In this document: positions 4,641-54,146 of the stretch, piece by piece
How the letters are laid out: each line of letters starts with the position of its first letter
How positions within the stretch are numbered: the first letter of the stretch is position 1
Virus record (IMG/VR): IMGVR_UViG_3300049460_000150
Span: 15,113 to 79,112 of that record
Length of the DNA: 64,000 bases
From: a virus
Reading direction: 5' to 3' (one strand)
Translations under genes and position numbers: made by a program
The notes under the pieces: model-generated
Databases searched by the model: none
Seen by the model: only the letters and a program-made list of their open reading frames with translations
Told to the model about the DNA's origin: nothing

Positions 4641-6122
4641 CTACTTGACCTTGTTGGCCCCTGCATTGTTGTCACGGGCCGGTGCGCCCTTCTCCTTGGT
4701 CTTGGCGGCGCGCTCGGTGGGGCTGTTGCCCTGGTCCGTGGTGGAGCTGGAGGGCGCGGCACCCGTGGCTGGGTCCAGGAAGTTCGTACCGCTCAGGACC
4801 GGAGCGCCTGGAGGTGGCAAACGACCATACATTTCGAGGTGATATTCTTCGTCAGTGATGATGCCTAAACTGAGGTCGTTTTTCAGGCGCGTGGCCTTCA
4901 TGGATTTGTTAGGCTCCAGCTCCGTTTCAGGGCGCAGTTCCACGTCGTCAAAAGTGCATTCAACATAGCTCTCCGAACCTTGCAGGCGCAGGCCCAGTGT
5001 GAAAGCTTGGCTCAGGAGGTCGGCGATTGGCTTGTTGATGGCCTGGGCGTTGAGCGAGAAAACACGCGCTTCAACAGTCGCGGTATTCACGCCGGTCGTG
5101 CCACGGCCAATGATCGTCGCCATCGTGCGCAAACCAGCTTGGTTCTGCGCGTTCAAAGTGTTGATGATGGAGTCGATGTTCAAGGTCATGGCCGACTTCT
5201 CGTTCATGGTCTTGGCTTCCACCGCGTCGTAGTGGACGAAAGCTTGATCCGACTTGATCGAGTTAATCTTCGACGTTATACCAGCCAGAGCCGAGTCCAA
5301 GAACTGCCGCGTTTTCACGGGGTCGATCTTAACGTCTGGCGGTGCGCTTTTCATCACTACTTCTTCCAGCACTTTAACGTCCAGGCGCGGGAAGCCGGTG
5401 ATGTTCATGATGCGGTACAAATCGTTGATGACTTGTTGACGCGCCGCGATGGTATTAATCGCGCTGACAAACGGACTGTAGGTATAGACGTTTGTTGGGT
5501 CCTTGCGGAACCATGTGCAAAAGAACTGCGGGATGTCGAGCGAGATGATATCGCCGCTCAATGCGCGCTGCTGCGGAGTGAACTGGGCGGGGGCCTTCTC
5601 AAACCACTCGATCTTTCCCATGTCTACTTGCCGCAATTCCATCGGCAAAAACTCCTTGCTGATGACCAGCTCTGCGCCGATACCTCCGCGCAGCAAAATC
5701 ATGTAGCGCAGGTCCTCCGCGATAGCCTTCATCGACTTGACGTTTTTGTAGCCTTTGGAATAGTCGAAACGCTTGGTCAGAGCATTGACAAGTTGCGCCA
5801 TCATTTCCTGGCCTGGACGATCCACCTGTCCGTTGACATCCTTGACCAGATAACGGAAGGGGGTATCCGCCACGGTTAAGAAGGCGTTGACGGACGCGCT
5901 CATGTCCGGGTCCGTACGGAACAAATCCTGGAGCAGCGCACGGCTGTCCAGGCTTGTCCGGCTGGTGAAGATGTCGGTGAGGTGTTCCCGGTAGGCCGGG
6001 AGCGACAAGATGTTGTTGGTAGCCGAAGGGTTAAAGGTCGAGGTGGTTGCTACGCCTTTGTCGTTCCCCTTCTTGCCTGGGAGTAGGACCTTTAACCGAT
6101 TAACGAGTGAGTTGGTTGCCAT
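4641..6122 (-). CDS. portal protein
   Basis: 493 aa directly after the terminase large subunit; typical portal size and helical composition. Confidence 0.8.
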   Translation of the reverse strand: MATNSLVNRLKVLLPGKKGNDKGVATTSTFNPSATNNILSLPAYREHLTDIFTSRTSLDSRALLQDLFRTDPDMSASVNAFLTVADTPFRYLVKDVNGQVDRPGQEMMAQLVNALTKRFDYSKGYKNVKSMKAIAEDLRYMILLRGGIGAELVISKEFLPMELRQVDMGKIEWFEKAPAQFTPQQRALSGDIISLDIPQFFCTWFRKDPTNVYTYSPFVSAINTIAARQQVINDLYRIMNITGFPRLDVKVLEEVVMKSAPPDVKIDPVKTRQFLDSALAGITSKINSIKSDQAFVHYDAVEAKTMNEKSAMTLNIDSIINTLNAQNQAGLRTMATIIGRGTTGVNTATVEARVFSLNAQAINKPIADLLSQAFTLGLRLQGSESYVECTFDDVELRPETELEPNKSMKATRLKNDLSLGIITDEEYHLEMYGRLPPPGAPVLSGTNFLDPATGAAPSSSTTDQGNSPTERAAKTKEKGAPARDNNAGANKVK

Positions 6123-7940: not shown

Positions 7941-7957
7941 GGATGATACTATCATCC
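7941..7957. promoter_or_regulatory. 17-bp palindromic operator GGATGATA-C-TATCATCC in the divergent terL/primase intergenic region
   Basis: perfect 8+1+8 inverted repeat; identical copy at 14592-14608. Confidence 0.7.
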
Positions 7958-8566: not shown

Positions 8567-11008
8567 ATGTCTATCGAAACCCCTACCATCTTCGCCTCCA
8601 CCGCCCCTGCGTATTTCGCTGCTGGAATGTCCGTAATTCCACTGCACGTCCGCGAGAAGAAACCAGTGCCAAACGACTGGTCCATGTTCCACGATTTGTT
8701 GCCTGCCAAGGAGCTGCAAAACCAGTGGTTGGCTGGCAATCCAAACTCCAACATTGGTCTGGTCCTGGGCCGTCAGTCCGGCGTGACCATGATCGACATC
8801 GACACGGACGATGAAAAAATCTACTCCGCCATCATGGGTTGTCTGCCTCATTCGCCATGGCATCGTCGTGGTAAAAAAGGCATGATGATCGCCTTCAAAT
8901 TCAGCGGACATAAGACCTTCCGAATCAAGAATATGTCTGGTCAAACCATGGTCGAGTGTTTGTCGTCCAGGACCCAGTGCGTTTTACCCCCATCGATCCA
9001 CCCAGAAACGCAGCAGCCATACACGTCAAACTGCGAGCTGATAGATGTCGTCGGAAATCTGCACAATCTGCCCACCGATATCGAAGATATGTTACGCACG
9101 GCCATCAAGGCTGCGGGCGTGGACCTTTCTCACTCCGGCTGGAGCCGTGTTACTGACTACGTTTCGAGCGGGTCGCGGGACACGACGCTGACCGAGATGG
9201 CTGGCCTCTTCGCTTTCGCCGTTGTTCGTGGCGAAAGGACGCTGAAGGAAGCCATTGGTATGCTCCAGGCGTATTACAACGAGTATATCGAGACGGTTGC
9301 AGGCGACCAGATCGATGTTGAAAAGCACATTGAGAATCTGATTAAGTTCCTGCACCGCGACGTGCTGGATAAGGGCAAAGTCCTGCCCAAAGGGTGGGAC
9401 GAAGGGTACAGCGCCGAAGATTTGACAAAAATGGGCGTGACTCTGGGCGTGGACCAGACCGAGTGGGCCTTCGATGAAGTCCGCAACTATCTGAAGACCT
9501 GTTTTGAGACCTACGGCGCGGAAGGCAAGGAGCGCGGAGATGCGGTCGAGATCGTCTTGTCACGCATTGCCAAATCCAAGACCCTTTCCAAGATCGATGA
9601 AGACCGGCTGTTGCAGTATATCGTTGATGTCTCAGGTTTGGGCGTCAAGATCAGCACGTTGCGGGCGCGTCTGAAGGAGCTGCGCGCTGGAACTGTGCAG
9701 GGCAACGACCACAGCGAAATCGCCAGGGCTGTTCTGGCAGATTTGAGCCAGTACAATCTGGTGAGGTTCCACACCGGGAAGTTGATGAAGTGGGCAGGCT
9801 CCCACTGGGTCGAAATGGAGATGCACGCCATCAAGAGTTTGGTGTCGAACTCTTACGGTCACTTAGCCGCTTGCAAAAAGGCCAGCGACATCAACGGTAT
9901 CCTCCAAATTCTGATGTATATCGCCGAGCAGGGGATTCAGAAAAAAGTCGTCAAAGGAATTAACTTCGCCAACGGGTTTTTGACGCAGGAATTGAAGCTG
10001 ATTCCCCATGAGCCAGACTTCGGCATGACTTATACGATGCCATTCCGCTACGTTCCAGAGGAAGCTGGACGCTTCCCGATGTTCGACGCCTTCCTTGCGC
10101 GGAGTTGGGGCGCGGACAAGGACTATATTGACAAGGTTATGGCGCTCCAAGAGGCCATGGCGGTGACGTTGTTCGGTCTCGGCTCCATGTTTCAGCGTGC
10201 GATTCTGCTGCACGGTGCGCCGAAATCGGGCAAGACCCAGTTGTTGCGCATCATCGAGACCCTTGTACCAGCAGAAGCACGTACTTCGGTGCCGCCAAAC
10301 CACTGGGATGACAAGTACATGCCAGGGCAGATGGTCGGCAAGATTTTGAACATCTGCGGCGAGCTGTCCGACAAGAAGCTTATCGACGGCCAATCCTTCA
10401 AGGACATCGTTGACGGGAGTGAGCGCAGTGGTCAGCACAAATATGGTGCCATTTTCAGCTTCCGTCCTTTGCTGACTCACTGGTTCGCCTCGAACCACAT
10501 TCCGCGCACGGCGGATACGTCCAGCGGTTTCATTCGTCGGTGGCTGTTTTTGACGTTCCATTTCCCGGTACAAGATGGGGCCATTGTTGCAGACATTGGC
10601 GACATCATTGCAGCCCAGGAGCGCGAGGCCATTGTATCGTGGGCGGCGCAAGCAATGCCGCGTCTGTTGAAGAAGGGCGATTACACCACGCCGGACAGTC
10701 ACCGGATGCTAGTAAATGAGTTCGCAAATATGAACAACTCTGTCCGTTACTACATGCGTGAAAGTGGAAAGATTACTTTCGACCACGCGGGCCACGCGGC
10801 TAGTAAGCTTTTTGCCACAGAAATGTCGCTGTACAACTCCTACTGGGCTTTCTGTGCTGGCGCTGGTGGGCTGAAGCCGGTGGGCCAGCAACGTTTCCGG
10901 GCGATCATGCGTGAGCTGCAACCAGAGCTTGGCTTTAAGCTCGAAGTAGCCCAGACAACGCTGGGCGGAACCGAGGCAGTCTACCGTGGGATGTCTATAC
11001 ACGTATAG
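8567..11008 (+). CDS. bifunctional primase-polymerase fused to D5-like SF3 helicase
   Basis: N-terminal Prim-Pol motifs (NIGLVLG, IDIDTD, VLPPSIHP), PriCT-like GSRDTTL, D5_N INFANG, Walker A GAPKSGKT, FASNHIP, FIRRW. Confidence 0.9.
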   Translation: MSIETPTIFASTAPAYFAAGMSVIPLHVREKKPVPNDWSMFHDLLPAKELQNQWLAGNPNSNIGLVLGRQSGVTMIDIDTDDEKIYSAIMGCLPHSPWHRRGKKGMMIAFKFSGHKTFRIKNMSGQTMVECLSSRTQCVLPPSIHPETQQPYTSNCELIDVVGNLHNLPTDIEDMLRTAIKAAGVDLSHSGWSRVTDYVSSGSRDTTLTEMAGLFAFAVVRGERTLKEAIGMLQAYYNEYIETVAGDQIDVEKHIENLIKFLHRDVLDKGKVLPKGWDEGYSAEDLTKMGVTLGVDQTEWAFDEVRNYLKTCFETYGAEGKERGDAVEIVLSRIAKSKTLSKIDEDRLLQYIVDVSGLGVKISTLRARLKELRAGTVQGNDHSEIARAVLADLSQYNLVRFHTGKLMKWAGSHWVEMEMHAIKSLVSNSYGHLAACKKASDINGILQILMYIAEQGIQKKVVKGINFANGFLTQELKLIPHEPDFGMTYTMPFRYVPEEAGRFPMFDAFLARSWGADKDYIDKVMALQEAMAVTLFGLGSMFQRAILLHGAPKSGKTQLLRIIETLVPAEARTSVPPNHWDDKYMPGQMVGKILNICGELSDKKLIDGQSFKDIVDGSERSGQHKYGAIFSFRPLLTHWFASNHIPRTADTSSGFIRRWLFLTFHFPVQDGAIVADIGDIIAAQEREAIVSWAAQAMPRLLKKGDYTTPDSHRMLVNEFANMNNSVRYYMRESGKITFDHAGHAASKLFATEMSLYNSYWAFCAGAGGLKPVGQQRFRAIMRELQPELGFKLEVAQTTLGGTEAVYRGMSIHV

Positions 11009-11116: not shown

Positions 11117-11144
11117 TTGACTTTGAGTGTGGATATGGTACATT
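11117..11144 (+). promoter_or_regulatory. sigma70-like promoter for the 11247 gene
   Basis: TTGACT-16 nt-TACATT with extended -10 TG. Confidence 0.6.
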
Positions 11145-11246: not shown

Positions 11247-12209
11247 ATGAGCACTTCTAGCATTCAACCAAGCCCACGCAAACCTTCCAAATCCACGAAG
11301 GCATCCGCGCTCCAAATTCCAGTTCCATCGACCCCAGCAAAAGGTCGTCGTAGTCAGGTATCACTCCCAGGCGAGGCACCGACCGGGGCAAAGCGTCCAA
11401 GCCCAGGCCAGCGCTCGCCCCGACTCAGTGGTATGCACGACCTGTCCTTCAACACATGCGTTAAAACGCTGTCTGGCATCACGATCTCGCGCCAGGGGCT
11501 TTTGCAACTGGAACTGGCCGTTGGTCTCGCCGTGTTCCTGGACTTCGGAGTTGCAGATCGTGCGGCCAAGACCATGCTGCAAGAAGTCTACTCAAAAGCG
11601 GGCTATGATTGTGCTGATTCGGCGGCCCCACACTATAAGACGGTCAATCGCCGGATTCAGGCCAGTGCGGCGCTGTTCGGCAAGATCAGCCTGGAGGTCC
11701 TAAACCACTGGGTAGACGGCAAGAAAGAGGGCAAGCTTTTGCAGGCCATCGCCCAGGAGATTGTGGAGTTTGGTTTCAAGTCCATGGACGACGTTCTGGA
11801 CCACGTTGGGCGCGCAAGCAATCGCGGGCCTGCCGTGGAGGGCCAGGAGGTTGGTGTCGCGGAGGCCGGTTCGGGCACTCGCGGCAGGAAGGCAAATACG
11901 GCCTTCGATATCCAGGTCGGAGACGACGTGGTTGTGCATCTGCCGCGCAAGCTGACGGAGGCAAATCTTGTCGAGCTGGCAACCAAAATCATGGCGCTGG
12001 CCCAGGTGATCCACGACCAGGAGGCTGCTGCTAAGGCCCAGGAGGCGGCAGACGCAGCAGCGGGTCTGATAGCACCGCTGGAGGCCCAGGACGGCGCTCA
12101 GGCGGTTCTGGGCGGTCCAGAGGGCGAGGCTCCCCCGGCAGGCGCGGGTGTTGGCCCGCAGGACGTTGCCGGTGACGTAGTGGTTGTCGGGGGCCGGAAA
12201 CGGCACTAA
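11247..12209 (+). CDS. unknown protein, paralogue A (shares a core domain with 12612-13436)
   Basis: 320 aa; core LELAV...AGY.C....YKTVNRR...F.KI...W...GF...DDVLD.VG is shared with the 12612 ORF; has its own promoter and terminator. Confidence 0.75.
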   Translation: MSTSSIQPSPRKPSKSTKASALQIPVPSTPAKGRRSQVSLPGEAPTGAKRPSPGQRSPRLSGMHDLSFNTCVKTLSGITISRQGLLQLELAVGLAVFLDFGVADRAAKTMLQEVYSKAGYDCADSAAPHYKTVNRRIQASAALFGKISLEVLNHWVDGKKEGKLLQAIAQEIVEFGFKSMDDVLDHVGRASNRGPAVEGQEVGVAEAGSGTRGRKANTAFDIQVGDDVVVHLPRKLTEANLVELATKIMALAQVIHDQEAAAKAQEAADAAAGLIAPLEAQDGAQAVLGGPEGEAPPAGAGVGPQDVAGDVVVVGGRKRH

Positions 12210-12406: not shown

Positions 12407-12611
12407 GGGATCAGGCCCGTTATATGGTGCAAAATGGTTGCAAAAATTTTTCAAAATTTTTTCCAAAACGTGAGACCTCTATACCCGACCCAAGCCCTCG
12501 CCACAAGCTCAAAAAAGCCCTATACTCTTAGTCATGCAGTCAGGTAAAGCAAGGTCCCGGAAACGGGACCACGCAAGGCCCCTGCTAACCCTATCAATCT
12601 GATATAAGGAA

Positions 12612-13436
12612 ATGACCATGAAAACCGCTGTCCAATCCACGCAAGGCCAAGGCACCACTACGTCCATCGACTATACCGTCCTGACGCTGGCAATCGCAAA
12701 CGCTGCACTGTCGCGCCGCGCCGCGCTGCACATGGAGCTGGCCGTATCGCTGATTCACTTCACGCAAGAAACGGGCGGCACTGACGCGACCGGCAAGGCC
12801 AACATGAAGGCCATCTACCATGGCGCGGGTTATCTGTGCATGGCTAAGAGTGACCGCGATTATAAAACGGTTAATCGTCGCTTGAATGCCATGGCTAAAG
12901 TGTTCGATAAAATCGGCTCCAGCACGGTCAACGAATGGATCGAGAACAAAGGCGATACAGATAGTATGCTCGCCTACGTGCAAACTGAATTGCTGGCGTA
13001 TGGCTTCGATACGTTGGATGATGTACTTGATTATGTTGGCGTAGAAACTAACAGAACCCGTGCGCCGCGCCAACCAGCCGCGCCGGTAGCAATCACGGTC
13101 CCGGAAACGGGACCAGCACCGGCAGCAGCAGCAGCGCCAGCGGTAGCAGTTCTGCCAACGTTCGACGCGGCACAAGTGCGCGCTGAAATGATGGCTAACA
13201 TGTCACCCGATGCGATCCGTGAATTCTGCGCGCAAATGCTGGCCGATGTCGCTGCACTGGAGCAAGCACAGATTGACGCTGAAACGGCAGCAGCAGCAGC
13301 GCCAGCAGCAGCAGCAGCAGCAGCAGCACCGGCAGCAGTCGTGCCGATGAATAGCAAGGCACGCAAACAGGCAAAGAAACAGGCGCATATCGCGGCGCAG
13401 CAGCAGCAGCAGCAGCAGCAGCGCGCAGCAGCATAA
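12612..13436 (+). CDS. unknown protein, paralogue B, with poly-Ala/poly-Gln tail
   Basis: 274 aa, AAGGA RBS; same core as 11247; 18-bp element upstream, inside and downstream. Confidence 0.8.
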   Translation: MTMKTAVQSTQGQGTTTSIDYTVLTLAIANAALSRRAALHMELAVSLIHFTQETGGTDATGKANMKAIYHGAGYLCMAKSDRDYKTVNRRLNAMAKVFDKIGSSTVNEWIENKGDTDSMLAYVQTELLAYGFDTLDDVLDYVGVETNRTRAPRQPAAPVAITVPETGPAPAAAAAPAVAVLPTFDAAQVRAEMMANMSPDAIREFCAQMLADVAALEQAQIDAETAAAAAPAAAAAAAAPAAVVPMNSKARKQAKKQAHIAAQQQQQQQQRAAA

Positions 13437-13920: not shown

Positions 13921-13968
13921 ACAAAACGGTCCCGTTTCCGGGACCGGCACCGTTGAAAGGGTTTCCAA

Positions 13969-14349
13969 ATGGCTGGCATGAGCGACAATCCCCTCGTGGG
14001 GGACTACACCAAGGGCATTTCCAAGGGTCGGCAATACTTCGTGGAGTTGCGCACGAGGTTCTTCCTTGAGAAAGCTGACCTGAAACACGTCACTTTGGAC
14101 CTCCAAATGGGGCTGTTCAAGGAGGCAAAGGCGTTCACTGACGCTTTCGTGAAGCTGAATCACCTAGACCGTTTTGGGCCGGTGCCGGTCCCGAAAACGG
14201 GACCGAAAAGCGTTGCTTTGCGTTCAACTCCATTGGCGCAGAAGCAACGAGTTATCCACAGGCCGACTTCGACAATTGCGAAAAACGCAAGCCTGAAAGT
14301 TTCTGCGTTGCAAGACATTAGGTTGCTTTACATGCAACTTTGTGGATAA
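13969..14349 (+). CDS. hypothetical protein (3' end overlaps DnaA boxes)
   Basis: 126 aa after an 18-bp element; stop codon lies within the DnaA box at 14341. Confidence 0.5.
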   Translation: MAGMSDNPLVGDYTKGISKGRQYFVELRTRFFLEKADLKHVTLDLQMGLFKEAKAFTDAFVKLNHLDRFGPVPVPKTGPKSVALRSTPLAQKQRVIHRPTSTIAKNASLKVSALQDIRLLYMQLCG

Positions 14350-14472
14350 CTCGCGTTTTTCTGTGGATAGTTTTTCTGGCCCTGTGAATAACTTATTTTT
14401 GCCTAAAAAATAGGCAGAAAACAGCGTTTTTTGTGGATAAGTCGGTGGATAACGCTAAAAAGCTGTGGATAA
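14252..14472. promoter_or_regulatory. cluster of seven DnaA boxes
   Basis: TTATCCACA 14252(+); TGTGGATAA 14341, 14432, 14464; TGTGGATAG 14362; TGTGAATAA 14383; GGTGGATAA 14444 (all six on the minus strand). Confidence 0.85.
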
Positions 14473-14476
14473 ACCG

Positions 14477-15086
14477 GCTTGATAGTCTCATCCACTTTCG
14501 GGGCGAGCGCCTGAAATTTCGGGTTTTCTGTAACGAATGATGGGCCGAATGGTCTAGACCATTTGTGGTCATTTTGACAGGATTTTTGGGAGGATGATAC
14601 TATCATCCCCCCATTTGCTTGCACATCGGACGAGAAAATGCAAGCGCTAAATCTGCCTAAAAATGAGGCAAATCGTTGTGCAGCGCAATATTTTGGCCTT
14701 TGGATGATAGTCTCATCCCCTTTTGGGGGCCAGGACAGGCACCGGGCGATGGCGAGGTCCCGGAAACGGGACCGGAGCGGCGGGTAGGAACCACAGGGAG
14801 GGGATGCAGACGTGATGGCGATGAAATGGGCTTGGCTTTGCGCTCGATTTTGCGCTCGCTTTTGCGCTCGCTTTTGCGCTCGCTTTTGCGCTCGATTTCC
14901 GATCACTTTTGCCTTCGCTTTTGCGCTTGGTTTGTGGTAAGGGGACGGCACCGGCTTTTCCTTTCCTTTCGTTATCTTCTCTCTTTTTCTAATTACTCTT
15001 TAGGGTTGAAGGGGGGATGATAGTATAAAAGGGTAAAGAGAAAAGAGTTACTTTTAAGAAATAAAGAGAGGATGAGACTATCATCT
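14477..15086. repeat. 17-bp palindrome family GGATGAKA-S-TMTCATCC (iteron/operator-like)
   Basis: 14477-14493, 14592-14608, 14702-14718, 15070-15086, plus a half-site at 15015; sister copy at 7941. Confidence 0.8.
14836..14930 (+). repeat. 12-bp tandem repeat TTTTGCGCTCG(C/A) x5 plus degenerate copies
   Basis: seen directly. Confidence 0.9.
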
Positions 15087-15208
15087 AAAAAATTCTGGAC
15101 CCCTGCCGGTCCCGGTCCCGTCGCCAACTAATGCCCAATTTTTAGGCAGTGTTTTCGGTGCCTTTTCCGACCCCAAAAAGTTGCCGAAAAGTGCATAAAA
15201 TGCCCCTC

Positions 15209-15245
15209 AAATTTGCCTAAAATTTGCCTAAAACTTGCCTAAAAA
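15209..15245 (+). repeat. 11-bp tandem repeat AAATTTGCCTA x3
   Basis: seen directly; one-helical-turn period. Confidence 0.8.
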
Positions 15246-15701
15246 TTGAGCATTTCTCGTGCTGCCGATCCACATCCTGATCCACATCCACATCCAAAAT
15301 CTGCACCAATTTTCGTTAAGGGGAACATCCATGCGCAACGTCATTCCGACCCAAAAGCGGTCATCACTTTTAGCCTCCCTCACCCGCCCAATTTCCATAC
15401 CCGCCTGGGTGCCCATTTTCATCACCCTCACCAACATGGTTTCCATCACCATTTTGGTCATCGCCAACCGAGACATCTTCGCAGCATGGTTCCACGGCTA
15501 AATGCAAGGGGTAAAGCTGCCGCCCTCCCACTGCCCGGTCCCGTTTCCGGGACCCGCCACAACCCTGGCCCCAGCATGGACCCCCAAAGCGATCAGAATC
15601 GCCCACAGGGCGTTTTTGGCTTATAATGAGTACCGTTCCACCACTGGCTCCATAATCGCCACCTGAGCGGTTTTAGAGCCTTCTAACAAAGGAGTGACAA
15701 A

Positions 15702-20797: not shown

Positions 20798-21061
20798 ATG
20801 GCCTCCGAACGCTTCATTGAGACCACTTACTACTTCCACAAAGAGGTAGTCAAGATCACTCGCGCCGCCCACCCTGAAAATGCTTTGCCAAACGCGGTGC
20901 GGCACCTGCTGCAAAACGACTACGGTGCCACCGTGGTCGAGGTCACGGACCTCCAATACGGCGAACTGCTGGCCGTGGCAACGTACAAGATCGGCGAGAA
21001 ATTGCAGATCATTTTCGAAAAGAACCCGCACCGTCCTGTGTGCATAAAGTGGGAGATTTGA
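20798..21061 (+). CDS. hypothetical early protein
   Basis: GGAG RBS. Confidence 0.6.
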   Translation: MASERFIETTYYFHKEVVKITRAAHPENALPNAVRHLLQNDYGATVVEVTDLQYGELLAVATYKIGEKLQIIFEKNPHRPVCIKWEI

Positions 21062-29956: not shown

Positions 29957-30414
29957 AGATCAAGAACCAAGTAAAGACCGTCAAAGAGACGAACAGCGCC
30001 AAGAACATTTCGTGCTATCTCGTGGTCAATAAAAAGGGCGCGGAAGTTGCAACGATCCACTGCTACCACAGCGCCACCATCCACGGCTTTGTGGTGCGAG
30101 TCGATGTCTACCAGCCGATAAAGGATGGTTTCGCGCAATACCGTGGCCGTTCCATCGCCAACGCCTTGCACGGCGGCGAGATCGCCGGAGTCAAGCTGTA
30201 TGACGGAAGCGAGACCGACGCCGATTCCGAAAAGATGCTCGCGGAATACCGTGCTGGCAACAAGACGATGCAAGCCTATATTGTGCAGCAAGCCGTGTCC
30301 CAAGGGATGTGCTTCACCAACACTGACGGCGACAATCTCTTCACGGGCCTGTATTACATGGAGGGCCTGGAGCGTCTGCATTCCTTTGGTTACATCGTCC
30401 ATCGTGTGCTGTAA
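29953..30414 (+). CDS. hypothetical protein
   Basis: GGAGG RBS. Confidence 0.65.
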   Translation: MKIKNQVKTVKETNSAKNISCYLVVNKKGAEVATIHCYHSATIHGFVVRVDVYQPIKDGFAQYRGRSIANALHGGEIAGVKLYDGSETDADSEKMLAEYRAGNKTMQAYIVQQAVSQGMCFTNTDGDNLFTGLYYMEGLERLHSFGYIVHRVL

Positions 30415-42282: not shown

Positions 42283-42548
42283 GCGATTACGAACTCCCAA
42301 GCATTCAGGAAGTCGCGCAACACTTGCGCGACAAACGCAAGGCGTATCAGCAACGGTATGGGTACGCCCCCAACTACGTTGTTTTTCGTGAGCGCTGGAA
42401 GATGGTGGACTGCACGAGTCTGCTTAACGGAACCAACGGGGTCCAACCAGTGGGCGTTATGCGTCTGCGCGACTTGACCATGTTCGATGGTCTGACGGTG
42501 CTGTTTTCTGATAAAATTTCGGAGTCCTTTGTGGGGATACTCGAATGA
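42279..42548 (+). CDS. hypothetical protein
   Basis: AAGGAG RBS, GTGA and ATGA coupling. Confidence 0.55.
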   Translation: MSDYELPSIQEVAQHLRDKRKAYQQRYGYAPNYVVFRERWKMVDCTSLLNGTNGVQPVGVMRLRDLTMFDGLTVLFSDKISESFVGILE

Positions 42549-45157
42549 AACGACCTAAGCCCAATACCATCTTGGTCGATTCCCGTAACTGGGCGTCGAT
42601 CAAGGACCGTGTGAGAGCCGAGATATCTGCCGCTGGTCTGGCGGGCCTGGACATCGAGACCGAGGACAGCCGCCGCCACGAGGGTCTTAACCGTCTGATG
42701 CAAGTCGATGACGAAGGACACAAAAGCAGCACGAAAAAGCTGCTTTTCGATACCAATCGCACGACCATCACCGGCTTCTCTGTCTACGCCGATGATTCTG
42801 ATACGGCCTACTACATCAATCTGGCCCACGCGGACGTGGAAAACCGCGTGCCTTGGACCCTGGCCCGCGAGCTGTTGGATTGCAAGCGCCCAGAGGCTTC
42901 CTGGGTGTGCCACAACGCGCCCTTTGAATTGACGATGTTCCGCAAGTGTTTGGGCCTCAAGTTGGACAAGGTTATCTGCACCATGCAGCTCGCGGTAACG
43001 GCGTTCAACGACGACACCTACAGCCGCGAGGACTTCATCAAGCCGGGCCTGGGGGGTATTGAGCGCCTGATGCCTCAGATCATTCGCGCCTTCGCCACGT
43101 TCCAGGGCAACGGCTCGAACGACATGGACGACAAGCAATCCGACTTGTTCTTCAAAGTGGTAGCGAAAGAGTCGAAAGCCGAACACTCGTGGATCGGTTA
43201 CATGAAGACCATGACCTGGACGTTCGGCCTGAAGAAGCTTTCGAAGCGCTTCCTGGGCTACACCCAGACCACGTTTGAAGAGGTCTTGAACGGTCGGGCG
43301 CACATGGGCCAGTTGACCGGCGAGGAAGTGGCTGAATACGGCGCAGACGATGCCTGGGTTTGTATGCACCTCTTCCACGAGTTGCTGGCCTATCTTGCAC
43401 AGACGAATGCGAAGGCAATACCAACGTTCTTTAGCCAAGAGAATCCGATGATCCACGTCTACTCCGACGTGTGGGCTGACGGCGTTAGGATCGACATCAA
43501 ACAAGTGCTGGCCCGCCAGCTCGTTTCTCGCAAGCAGTATGCCCGCACGCTGGCAGAGCTGAAGGCTGAGGTGCGCAAGATGCTGCCGTTCCCGCAGGAC
43601 GTGCATGAAAAGCTGGTCAAGTACGACCCTAAAGGCTACGGCAAAGAAGGAACGGCGGAGCGGTATCGCCATCAGGTAGAAACCTGGGCAAAGATGGCCG
43701 ACGCACCCAATGCCTTCGAGCAGATTTACCAGACCAAGAACCCGCTGGGTAAACAGTGGGGCGCGGAGCTGAACCGTAAAGAGTCGAAGGGCTTGTCCAT
43801 CAACTACTACCAAGTCAAGCGCTGTATCCTGCTGGACTTGTGCCGTTGCAGCTTCCAGCTCAATGATGGGAAACCAGCATCGGATGCGGACGCCATCGAT
43901 ACGATGGAAGAACGGTGGAAGAAGAAGGGCGATGGCGGCGAGCGTGGCCCAGCGGCGTACGAGCCGGTGCTTAAAATCATTGAGCTTTATAAGAAGCTGG
44001 CGAAGATTGAACAGGTCAACAAACTGTTCATCAACTCGTACTTGAACTTGACCGATCCCGACACCGGCAAAGTCTACCCGACTTTGAACTCGCTGTTGAA
44101 CTCGCGCCGTATGGCGTTGGCGACACCGAACCTGTCGCAGCTCCCGAAGTACGACGAGAACGCTTTTGTTCGCTCGTTCTTCCTGGCCGACGAGGACGAC
44201 CATATCATCATCTCCGCCGACTGGGCCTCCATCGAGCTGGTGCTGATCGGCGACCGATCCGGCGACCCTGGCTTCGCTGCCGTTTTCGGCCAGCTCCCGT
44301 TCGGCGACTTGCACTCGGAAACGGCGGCTTTCTTGCAAGATTTGAGCGTGCTAGATTTCAAGCAGCGTCCTACCTACAAGGAAGAACGCCGCGACCTGGG
44401 CAAAGTGCCAAACTTCGGCTACTGGTATTCCGGCGCGCTGGGTCAAGCCGCGAAGGCCATGAACTGGGGCAGCGAGAAGATGTGGGAAGCCACGGACAAG
44501 TATCGTCAGCGTTTCCCAGTGGCGGAAGCGTGGCGTGTTGGCGTCATCCAGAAGACGCGGGAAACTGGCATTGTCCACTTGCCAGACGGTCACACGCGGA
44601 TTCGTTACGAATCCACGTACGATTGGGCGCAGCAGATGCGTGCCAAATGGGCGCGTCACGGCGATATAGCTCTGAAGTTCGGGGAACAGGTCATTAAGAA
44701 GATTCAGACCCGCTCCGGCAATCAGGCCGTCAACTCGGAGATTCAAGGCACTTGCGCCACGCTGGCGAAGCGTGCAATCTTGCGCATCCGCGAGAAGGTA
44801 GCACAGATGGATTTACGCGCTCGATTCATGTTCCCAGTACACGACGAATTGGTGTTCTCGGTTCACAAATACGACGCGCTGCCGTTCATCCGCATTCTGC
44901 GTCAAGCGATGTGCGAAGGCCACGAAGACATCGTTACGCGCCTGAAACTGGATTGCGCCGTGGCTGTTGGCTTCAACTACCTGGGATGGGATGCCGAGAC
45001 CAATCCAACGGGCCAGATCGAGCTGGACGAGTGCAGCAAGTTGCCGATCTTCGGCAAAGAGAAGTGGGGTACGAAACTGGACGAAAGCGACTACACAGCC
45101 GTGATCGATTATCTGTATGCAGTTAGAGCCAAGAAAGAGGAAGAGGTGACAGCATGA
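42545..45157 (+). CDS. polA: family A DNA polymerase with 3'-5' exonuclease
   Basis: LDIETE, HNAPFE, YGADDA (exonuclease); PNLSQLP, SADWASIEL, R...GKVPNFG..Y, NSEIQG, VHDELVF. Confidence 0.92.
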   Translation: MKRPKPNTILVDSRNWASIKDRVRAEISAAGLAGLDIETEDSRRHEGLNRLMQVDDEGHKSSTKKLLFDTNRTTITGFSVYADDSDTAYYINLAHADVENRVPWTLARELLDCKRPEASWVCHNAPFELTMFRKCLGLKLDKVICTMQLAVTAFNDDTYSREDFIKPGLGGIERLMPQIIRAFATFQGNGSNDMDDKQSDLFFKVVAKESKAEHSWIGYMKTMTWTFGLKKLSKRFLGYTQTTFEEVLNGRAHMGQLTGEEVAEYGADDAWVCMHLFHELLAYLAQTNAKAIPTFFSQENPMIHVYSDVWADGVRIDIKQVLARQLVSRKQYARTLAELKAEVRKMLPFPQDVHEKLVKYDPKGYGKEGTAERYRHQVETWAKMADAPNAFEQIYQTKNPLGKQWGAELNRKESKGLSINYYQVKRCILLDLCRCSFQLNDGKPASDADAIDTMEERWKKKGDGGERGPAAYEPVLKIIELYKKLAKIEQVNKLFINSYLNLTDPDTGKVYPTLNSLLNSRRMALATPNLSQLPKYDENAFVRSFFLADEDDHIIISADWASIELVLIGDRSGDPGFAAVFGQLPFGDLHSETAAFLQDLSVLDFKQRPTYKEERRDLGKVPNFGYWYSGALGQAAKAMNWGSEKMWEATDKYRQRFPVAEAWRVGVIQKTRETGIVHLPDGHTRIRYESTYDWAQQMRAKWARHGDIALKFGEQVIKKIQTRSGNQAVNSEIQGTCATLAKRAILRIREKVAQMDLRARFMFPVHDELVFSVHKYDALPFIRILRQAMCEGHEDIVTRLKLDCAVAVGFNYLGWDAETNPTGQIELDECSKLPIFGKEKWGTKLDESDYTAVIDYLYAVRAKKEEEVTA

Positions 45158-51340: not shown

Positions 51341-54146
<2,806 letters not shown>

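Follow-up and report, generated by a model that had tools for sequence, protein, structure and literature searches.

Why should a phage that encodes its own replisome carry a dense cluster of binding sites for DnaA, the bacterial initiator, and what might such a cluster do? The locus lies in a complete, circularly assembled viral genome of 79,112 bp, of which bases 15113-79112 make up the 64-kb stretch analysed here (the window, to whose numbering positions refer unless another record is named). The phage is lytic-type, and its kin Xylophilus phage Lumi, Achromobacter phage JWF and Caulobacter phage Seuss are siphophages with direct terminal repeats (DTRs) of 1.5-2.3 kb; its primase is 62% identical to that of Lumi, 53-54% to those of Achromobacter phages 2-1 and JWF, and 44% to that of Seuss. 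Judging from these nearest named phages, the host is probably a betaproteobacterium. JWF-like elements with the same gene order also occur within large contigs of Burkholderia genome assemblies, one of them in a 290-kb contig of Burkholderia paludis MSh1 (L102), and in isolate-derived UViGs (L012, L029, L033, L034, L072). The initial annotation had credited the phage with its own replisome, and the gene content bears this out, with a 5'-3' exonuclease in addition:

8567-11008, plus strand: P4-type primase/SF3 helicase, candidate initiator of the phage itself
41500-42282: 5'-3' exonuclease
42545-45157: PolA
51902-53914: NAD-dependent ligase

Further genes encode an SNF2 helicase, an SbcCD-like pair and a thymidylate synthase, and the terminase and portal genes are on the minus strand. 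No homologue of DnaA, of the DnaA C-terminal domain or of DnaB was found in the phage, so that only host DnaA can read the boxes; nearly all bacteria have DnaA, and a phage cannot easily dispense with the copy of its host. Searches of the phage for a tyrosine integrase and ParB found neither, which leaves a plasmid-prophage maintenance origin unsupported.

The array consists of seven boxes that span 14252-14472:

14252-14260, plus strand: DnaA box 1, perfect, the sole plus-strand box, in the 3' tail of the ORF at 13969-14349
14341-14349, minus strand: DnaA box 2, perfect; the stop codon of the same ORF makes up its last three bases
14362-14370, minus strand: DnaA box 3, one mismatch (position 1), 21 bp after box 2
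14383-14391, minus strand: DnaA box 4, fits the TTATNCACA consensus, 21 bp after box 3
14432-14440, minus strand: DnaA box 5, perfect
14444-14452, minus strand: DnaA box 6, one mismatch (position 9), 12 bp after box 5 with a 3-bp gap
14464-14472, minus strand: DnaA box 7, perfect

A scan of the 64-kb window for TTATNCACA returned five exact matches within the array (14252 on the plus strand; 14341, 14383, 14432 and 14464 on the minus strand) and a single further one outside it, at 21039; shuffled windows held 0.86 on average, and none of 100 shuffles reached six. At the window-wide rate, 0.003 exact boxes are expected in 221 bp, and the Poisson probability of five or more is about 2e-15. Four of the five are perfect-consensus boxes and one is a TTATTCACA variant, while the boxes starting at 14362 and 14444 (both minus strand) each carry one mismatch. 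This is the seven-box composition that had been claimed, and the exact 21-bp steps claimed for the starts 14341, 14362 and 14383 are likewise present. From box 2 to box 7 the steps are 21/21/49/12/20 bp, the last two being those of boxes 5-7; boxes 2-7 all lie on the minus strand, and box 1 faces them. The inverted pair described for the first two boxes is real, with arms of 13 bp rather than the 12 bp first given (14248-14260 and 14341-14353, 100% complementary), and these arms form a long closing stem in the RNA of 14205-14360, which folds better than its shuffles (z = -3.3). The stem is followed by a U-run, and the stretch may serve in addition as a structured 3' end of the upstream operon. 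Separately, a sigma-70-like promoter at 11117-11144 (16-nt spacer) precedes the gene at 11247 and holds a one-mismatch DnaA box (11128-11136, minus strand) inside its spacer; DnaA might repress this promoter, and the match could equally be due to chance, the expectation being about 8.6 one-mismatch sites per window.

The boxes stand at the left end of a non-coding stretch of about 1 kb (14350-15330), which separates the last ORF of the primase-side operon from the early genes, the first small one of which begins at 15331. The stretch holds the following elements:

14399-14416: AT-rich phage-specific palindrome between the two box triplets, with copies at 14653, 15132 and 15235
14480-15083: five copies or half-copies of an operator-like 17-bp palindrome (~14480, 14592, 14702, 15011, 15067)
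14509-14565, plus strand: two terminator-like hairpins after the boxes and before the promoter, which would close the upstream operon
14574-14603, plus strand: rightward sigma-70-like promoter, 10 of 12 matches, its -10 inside the 17-bp palindrome at 14592-14608
14837-14927, plus strand: iteron-like 12-bp tandem repeat, 7.7 copies
14971-15070: AT-rich pyrimidine/purine block, the least stable 100-mer in the whole 64-kb window
15176-15248, plus strand: iteron-like 11-bp tandem repeat, 6.7 copies
15266-15286, plus strand: pair of weak box-like sites with 2 and 1 mismatches, spaced 12 bp, where the region ends on the right; orientation opposite to that of boxes 2-7

With their promoter, palindromes, tandem repeats and least stable DNA, the surroundings look like an origin or early-control region. 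Boxes, iteron-like tandem repeats and AT-rich segment share one non-coding region, as they do in an iteron origin with auxiliary DnaA boxes. The AT-rich block sits between the 12-bp and 11-bp repeats, and in position and style it is homologous to the block that ends the Lumi terminal repeat; a motif like the palindrome at 14399-14416 also occurs in the non-coding region of Lumi. The 17-bp palindrome is identical at 14592-14608 and at 7941-7957, in the promoter region of the primase operon, and is probably the operator of a phage regulator. Pfam and PHROG searches of the small genes around the array region gave no match, and Rfam and tRNA scans of that region gave nothing credible. A different palindrome of 18 bp (7-bp GC-rich arms, 4-bp centre) has some 13-20 copies in the early region between 12553 and 29252 and is rare elsewhere in the window; copies at 13927, 14186, 14755 and 15536 surround the array, and the copies often lie just past stop codons.

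Is the array a property of the phage family? We compared the region with 102 related loci (1.65 Mb in all, from IMG/VR and GTDB) with primase identities of 26-66%, the viral ones found by an alignment-based primase scan; the relatives that the GTDB scan returned were at most 55% identical and gave no host assignment. Closer primases (P0002-P0012) are 75-85% identical. At the DNA level, 13.5-16.5 kb had no match among 50,697 phage records, and blastn of 11-17.5 kb against all related loci gave one 69-bp coding match only, so that conservation was judged at the level of motifs alone. None of the 102 loci has a box cluster, the count never exceeding two boxes per 300 bp. Box matches are scattered and number 0-2 in the complete records of Lumi, JWF, 2-1 and Seuss, whose homologous non-coding gaps have no site at one mismatch or fewer; the homologous gap of L049, a locus at 65% identity, has two isolated one-mismatch sites. 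A metagenome scan for boxes combined with the phage palindrome gave six matches, all unrelated.

What the relatives do share is the region itself. L049 has the AT-rich block, 12-bp tandem repeats and three palindromes of the 17-bp type (15070, 15107 and 15412 of that locus), and Lumi has the AT-rich block and the small palindrome, in both cases without boxes. The boxes are therefore an add-on to a conserved functional region, and by these motif comparisons they are a lineage-specific addition to the control region of the family. Since every relative examined shares the region without the boxes, DnaA is not needed for the core origin or packaging of the family, and the benefit of the array may be small or other in kind, such as a sink or a pause during entry.

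The same relatives place the region at a probable genome end. The records of the four characterised ones (Lumi, JWF, 2-1 and Seuss) are linear, with identical DTRs at the two ends that measure 2298, 1466, 1542 and 1748 bp in the four genomes, the Lumi repeat having been determined by PhageTerm (PMC9959647). In these phages the repeat starts shortly downstream of the primase gene, just past a conserved AT-rich motif, holds a few small genes, and has its other end inside the large non-coding gap before the early genes or at the margin of that gap. The motif is present here as well:

12437-12464, plus strand: AT-rich outer-boundary motif, found in JWF, 2-1, Seuss and Lumi just before the DTR start

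It recurs at 14114 in L022, 13039 in L046 and 12881 in L030, and could serve this phage family as a packaging element or as a recognition site for the terminase. From its position we predict that the repeat starts near 12.47 kb; it is predicted to end within 14350-15330 and, by homology, to be roughly 2-2.6 kb long, with 3-4 small genes followed by the boxes. Two paralogous ORFs with no assigned family (11247-12209 and 12612-13436) flank the predicted start; both match one L049 ORF (38% identity) and have no Pfam or PHROG match. The Lumi and Seuss repeats end directly after the AT-rich block, by analogy with which the end would fall at about 15.07-15.10 kb, with the boxes inside the repeat and present in two copies per virion DNA; the JWF and 2-1 repeats end 60-100 bp past the last gene, and by their analogy the end would fall within the box cluster.

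Phased arrays of this kind are not confined to the present phage. At least 79 IMG/VR contigs (loci L109-L187) carry three boxes in 21-bp register, against a chance expectation estimated at far below one; many of them continue to 5-15 boxes in steps of 21 or 11-12 bp (range 3-15), and a second box pattern matched more than 120 IMG/VR contigs. Gaps free of ORFs of 90 aa or more hold 61 of the 79 arrays, and the neighbours sampled are phage genes (phi29-type capsid, terminases, SU10-type portal, PrimPol-helicase, PolA); Gokushovirus-like sequences are also among the matches. Array loci such as L135 (9580-9735), L129, L146, L154 and L172 come from low- and high-GC hosts. In a T7-like contig related to Ralstonia phage DU_RP_I (L143), five boxes at 4930-5210 occupy an end junction of about 1 kb between the terminase gene and the early genes and are followed by six 11-bp tandem repeats. 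Lactococcus phage LW81 (L309, ~5064-6111) has seven boxes, four phased and three about 290 bp away, and arrays of the Lactococcus 949 group lie in a 1-kb non-coding gap between leftward and rightward gene blocks. A tblastn comparison of all ORFs of the present phage with 197 array-bearing loci found no relatives, so the arrays of the other phages are independent of this lineage. Recurrence in unrelated viral contigs points to repeated selection rather than accident and suggests that phased arrays are an under-described class of phage cis-element; T5 was the only described case of phage DnaA boxes found in a literature search.

What, then, does the array do? Consensus boxes in a dense cluster are the feature by which oriC is known, and the initial annotation had proposed a host-DnaA-dependent origin as one of two options; on this reading host DnaA alone would open the phage DNA and start first-round replication. 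The least stable DNA of the window does lie in the same non-coding region, and the cumulative G-C curve of the entire genome reaches a single global maximum at position 30,000 of the genome (window ~14,888), which puts the skew turning point within 500 bp of the boxes; the turn is not explained by gene orientation, because genes on both sides are on the plus strand. Under the usual rule, however, the cumulative minimum marks an origin and the maximum a terminus or physical end, so the sign of the skew, named in the annotation as a check, speaks against an origin. No AT-rich unwinding element adjoins the boxes on the side set by their orientation, the 80 bp between the facing boxes being 45% GC, and no DnaA-trio run of three or more occurs in 14100-15400. 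The AT-rich block is about 500 bp away and may be a terminase cutting site rather than an unwinding element, since its counterpart in Lumi marks the end of the terminal repeat. The phage moreover has its own SF3 helicase-primase and neither a DnaB nor a loader for DnaA to recruit, and the boxes occur in no related locus examined, conservation having been a further point of the annotation. We consider a self-sufficient oriC-like origin the least probable of the readings weighed here. A captured host oriC, or an assembly chimera with one, which the annotation had named as a possible refutation, is also unlikely: the phage palindrome lies between boxes 4 and 5, so that native motifs are interleaved with the boxes, and the 21-bp two-box pair was absent from 200 of 201 sampled Burkholderiales genomes. 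The single match (G065:C117) is an unrelated 1.6-kb contig with two boxes. With the design not found in the Burkholderiales sample, the array is no copy of a host chromosome feature. That the cluster has no DnaA function, and consists of sites for phage proteins, an RNA or DNA structure, a recombination relic or an assembly chimera, would agree with the folding of 14205-14360 and with the lack of conservation among relatives, yet one hairpin cannot explain four exact 9-mers plus three near copies, phages of unrelated hosts carry an array of the same 9-mer, and the record is a complete, circularly assembled genome whose own motifs are interleaved with the boxes. We regard such an absence of function as very improbable.

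Two further explanations accept DnaA binding and differ in its purpose. In the datA-like sink that was the other option of the initial annotation, replicating phage genomes would titrate host DnaA with seven boxes each, or 14 if the boxes are in both repeat copies, and so block host rounds or release DnaA-repressed genes. The array has the several high-affinity boxes of such a sink (four perfect and three near-consensus), and the perfect ones are of the type to which DnaA binds in either nucleotide form, like the strong sites of titration loci such as datA and the B. subtilis clusters. A sink would also fit the lack of an adjoining unwinding element and an optional, lineage-specific distribution like that of an accessory element for host manipulation. 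On the other side, the IHF consensus WATCAANNNNTTR has no match in 14000-15400, and the AT-rich palindrome fills the gap between the boxes where such a site would lie; an IHF site is essential for datA-type hydrolysis of DnaA-ATP, though not for simple titration. Halting host initiations offers little obvious gain within one lytic cycle, and a sink needs no precise placement at a promoter or terminal repeat, yet that placement is repeated in other phages, so that we hold this role to be decidedly unlikely. The alternative that keeps the placement central is a T5-type role in DNA entry, in which an array in the terminal repeat would meet membrane-associated DnaA as the DNA enters, and the incoming end would be paused, anchored or shielded while the genes of the terminal repeat and the early promoters act first. 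T5-like phages have about eight DnaA boxes, of unproven function, in the injection-stop region of their long terminal repeat (bioRxiv 10.1101/866236). The relatives' long repeats end in the region homologous to ours, the predicted layout of 3-4 small genes and then boxes resembles the first-step-transfer segment of T5, the pair at 14432/14444 has the 3-bp gap typical of T5 pairs, and the boxes of the T7-like contig are in an end junction. Against this, the T5 model is itself a proposal, the relatives without boxes mean that an entry role is no family trait, and same-strand phasing at 21 bp differs from the paired boxes inside inverted repeats of T5. An entry role thus appears possible but doubtful.

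Taken together, the sequence comparisons indicate that the array is a genuine high-affinity docking array for host DnaA, selected and optional, added on to the control region. For a cluster so far beyond chance and made of the strongest class of box, capture of host DnaA is the natural reading, and the oriC-like origin proposed in the initial annotation fails the tests run; contexts that lay beyond that annotation are the predicted long terminal repeat, the early promoters just downstream and the precedent in T5-like phages. The boxes with their phasing and rarity, the anatomy around them and their absence from the relatives examined are shown directly; that DnaA occupies them, that they lie inside the terminal repeat and what binding brings about are inferred. 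The explanation that we favour, tentatively and at somewhat less than even confidence, is that the docking complex helps the first events at the terminal-repeat and early-control locus. Host DnaA, in its ATP or ADP form, would fill the four perfect boxes and spread cooperatively from them to the three near-consensus boxes, the spacing of 21 bp, or two helical turns, placing boxes 2-4 on the same face of the helix. The nucleoprotein complex so formed would have the rightward early promoter 100-230 bp downstream of it and the iteron and AT-rich block at a distance of about 500 bp. From there it could act by either of two routes. It might stimulate early transcription through the AT-rich block, as DnaA stimulates transcription at lambda pR/ori-lambda, or it might aid the opening of the DNA and the loading of the phage SF3 helicase-primase, much as Rep proteins have the help of DnaA at iteron plasmids and P1 oriR. 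On either route the array would be an auxiliary site for a host factor, and neither a self-sufficient oriC-type origin nor a captured host oriC.

A broader proposal, which we think unlikely, is that phased arrays form a module of end biology, recurrent and horizontally acquired by phages with terminal repeats (T5-like, T7-like and JWF/Lumi-like), in which oligomerising host DnaA would coat both copies of the repeat and so join the genome ends to each other or to the membrane. If so, end-joining by DnaA would speed end protection, circularisation, concatemer formation or repeat duplication, and a bacterial initiator would serve the end biology of phages independently of origin firing. Under the favoured explanation of a docking complex that assists early events, too, an element that captures DnaA gives simple, testable access to the question of how a lytic phage equipped with a replisome still exploits host initiation. 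The relatives that share the control region without boxes are a natural control, and the effect of the 220-bp cassette should be separable by its exchange or removal. As a class, the phage arrays may matter for the entry of DNA, the protection of its ends, early transcription or the start of replication.

The array can be set beside several known systems. With E. coli datA and the box clusters of B. subtilis it shares strong boxes away from an origin that are able to hold many DnaA molecules, and it differs from datA in having no IHF consensus between its boxes, in its site at a phage promoter and terminal-repeat junction, and in a copy number that rises with phage replication. The likeness to E. 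coli oriC lies in perfect R1/R4-type 9-mers and a helically phased same-strand array with one opposite box; here, however, there is no flanking unwinding element, no trios and no IHF site, the skew has the opposite sign, the boxes are 21 rather than 11 bp apart and nearly all of high affinity, and the phage has no DnaB and no loader. At the iteron origins P1 oriR, F oriS, RK2 oriV and that of pSC101, DnaA assists an initiator encoded by the element itself. Like these, the phage region combines boxes, iterons of about one turn and an AT-rich segment within about 1 kb, whereas it has no neighbouring gene for a Rep-type initiator (the end of the primase-helicase gene is 3.2 kb upstream), some 400-500 bp separate the boxes from the putative iterons and AT-rich block, and the region holds a probable genome end.

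The closest described parallel in a phage is the injection-stop region of T5, which is non-coding and repeat-rich and where boxes were noted by Heusterspreute in 1987, as cited by Davison (bioRxiv 10.1101/866236). Both have 7-8 consensus or near-consensus boxes in a long untranslated region rich in repeats and palindromes, in a lytic phage with its own replication genes, and in both the function of the array is only proposed; the T5 boxes lie in a long DTR that carries a few small early genes, and the array here is predicted to lie in or beside such a DTR. The T5 boxes form pairs with 3-bp gaps in two inverted-repeat units and are kept in 25 of 25 relatives compared (bioRxiv 10.1101/866236), whereas here a single pair (14432/14444) has such a gap, the rest being mostly 20-21 bp apart on one strand, no relative examined has boxes, and the two phage families are unrelated. 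The 21-bp arrays of other phages, finally, belong to unrelated lineages and hosts, vary from 3 to 15 boxes and in the T7-like contig are oriented oppositely with respect to the early genes, and they share with the present array the register of three boxes at 21 bp, often neighbours at 11-12 bp, and, in most cases, a position in ORF-free gaps at the junctions of modules or genome ends, with phage genes on either side.
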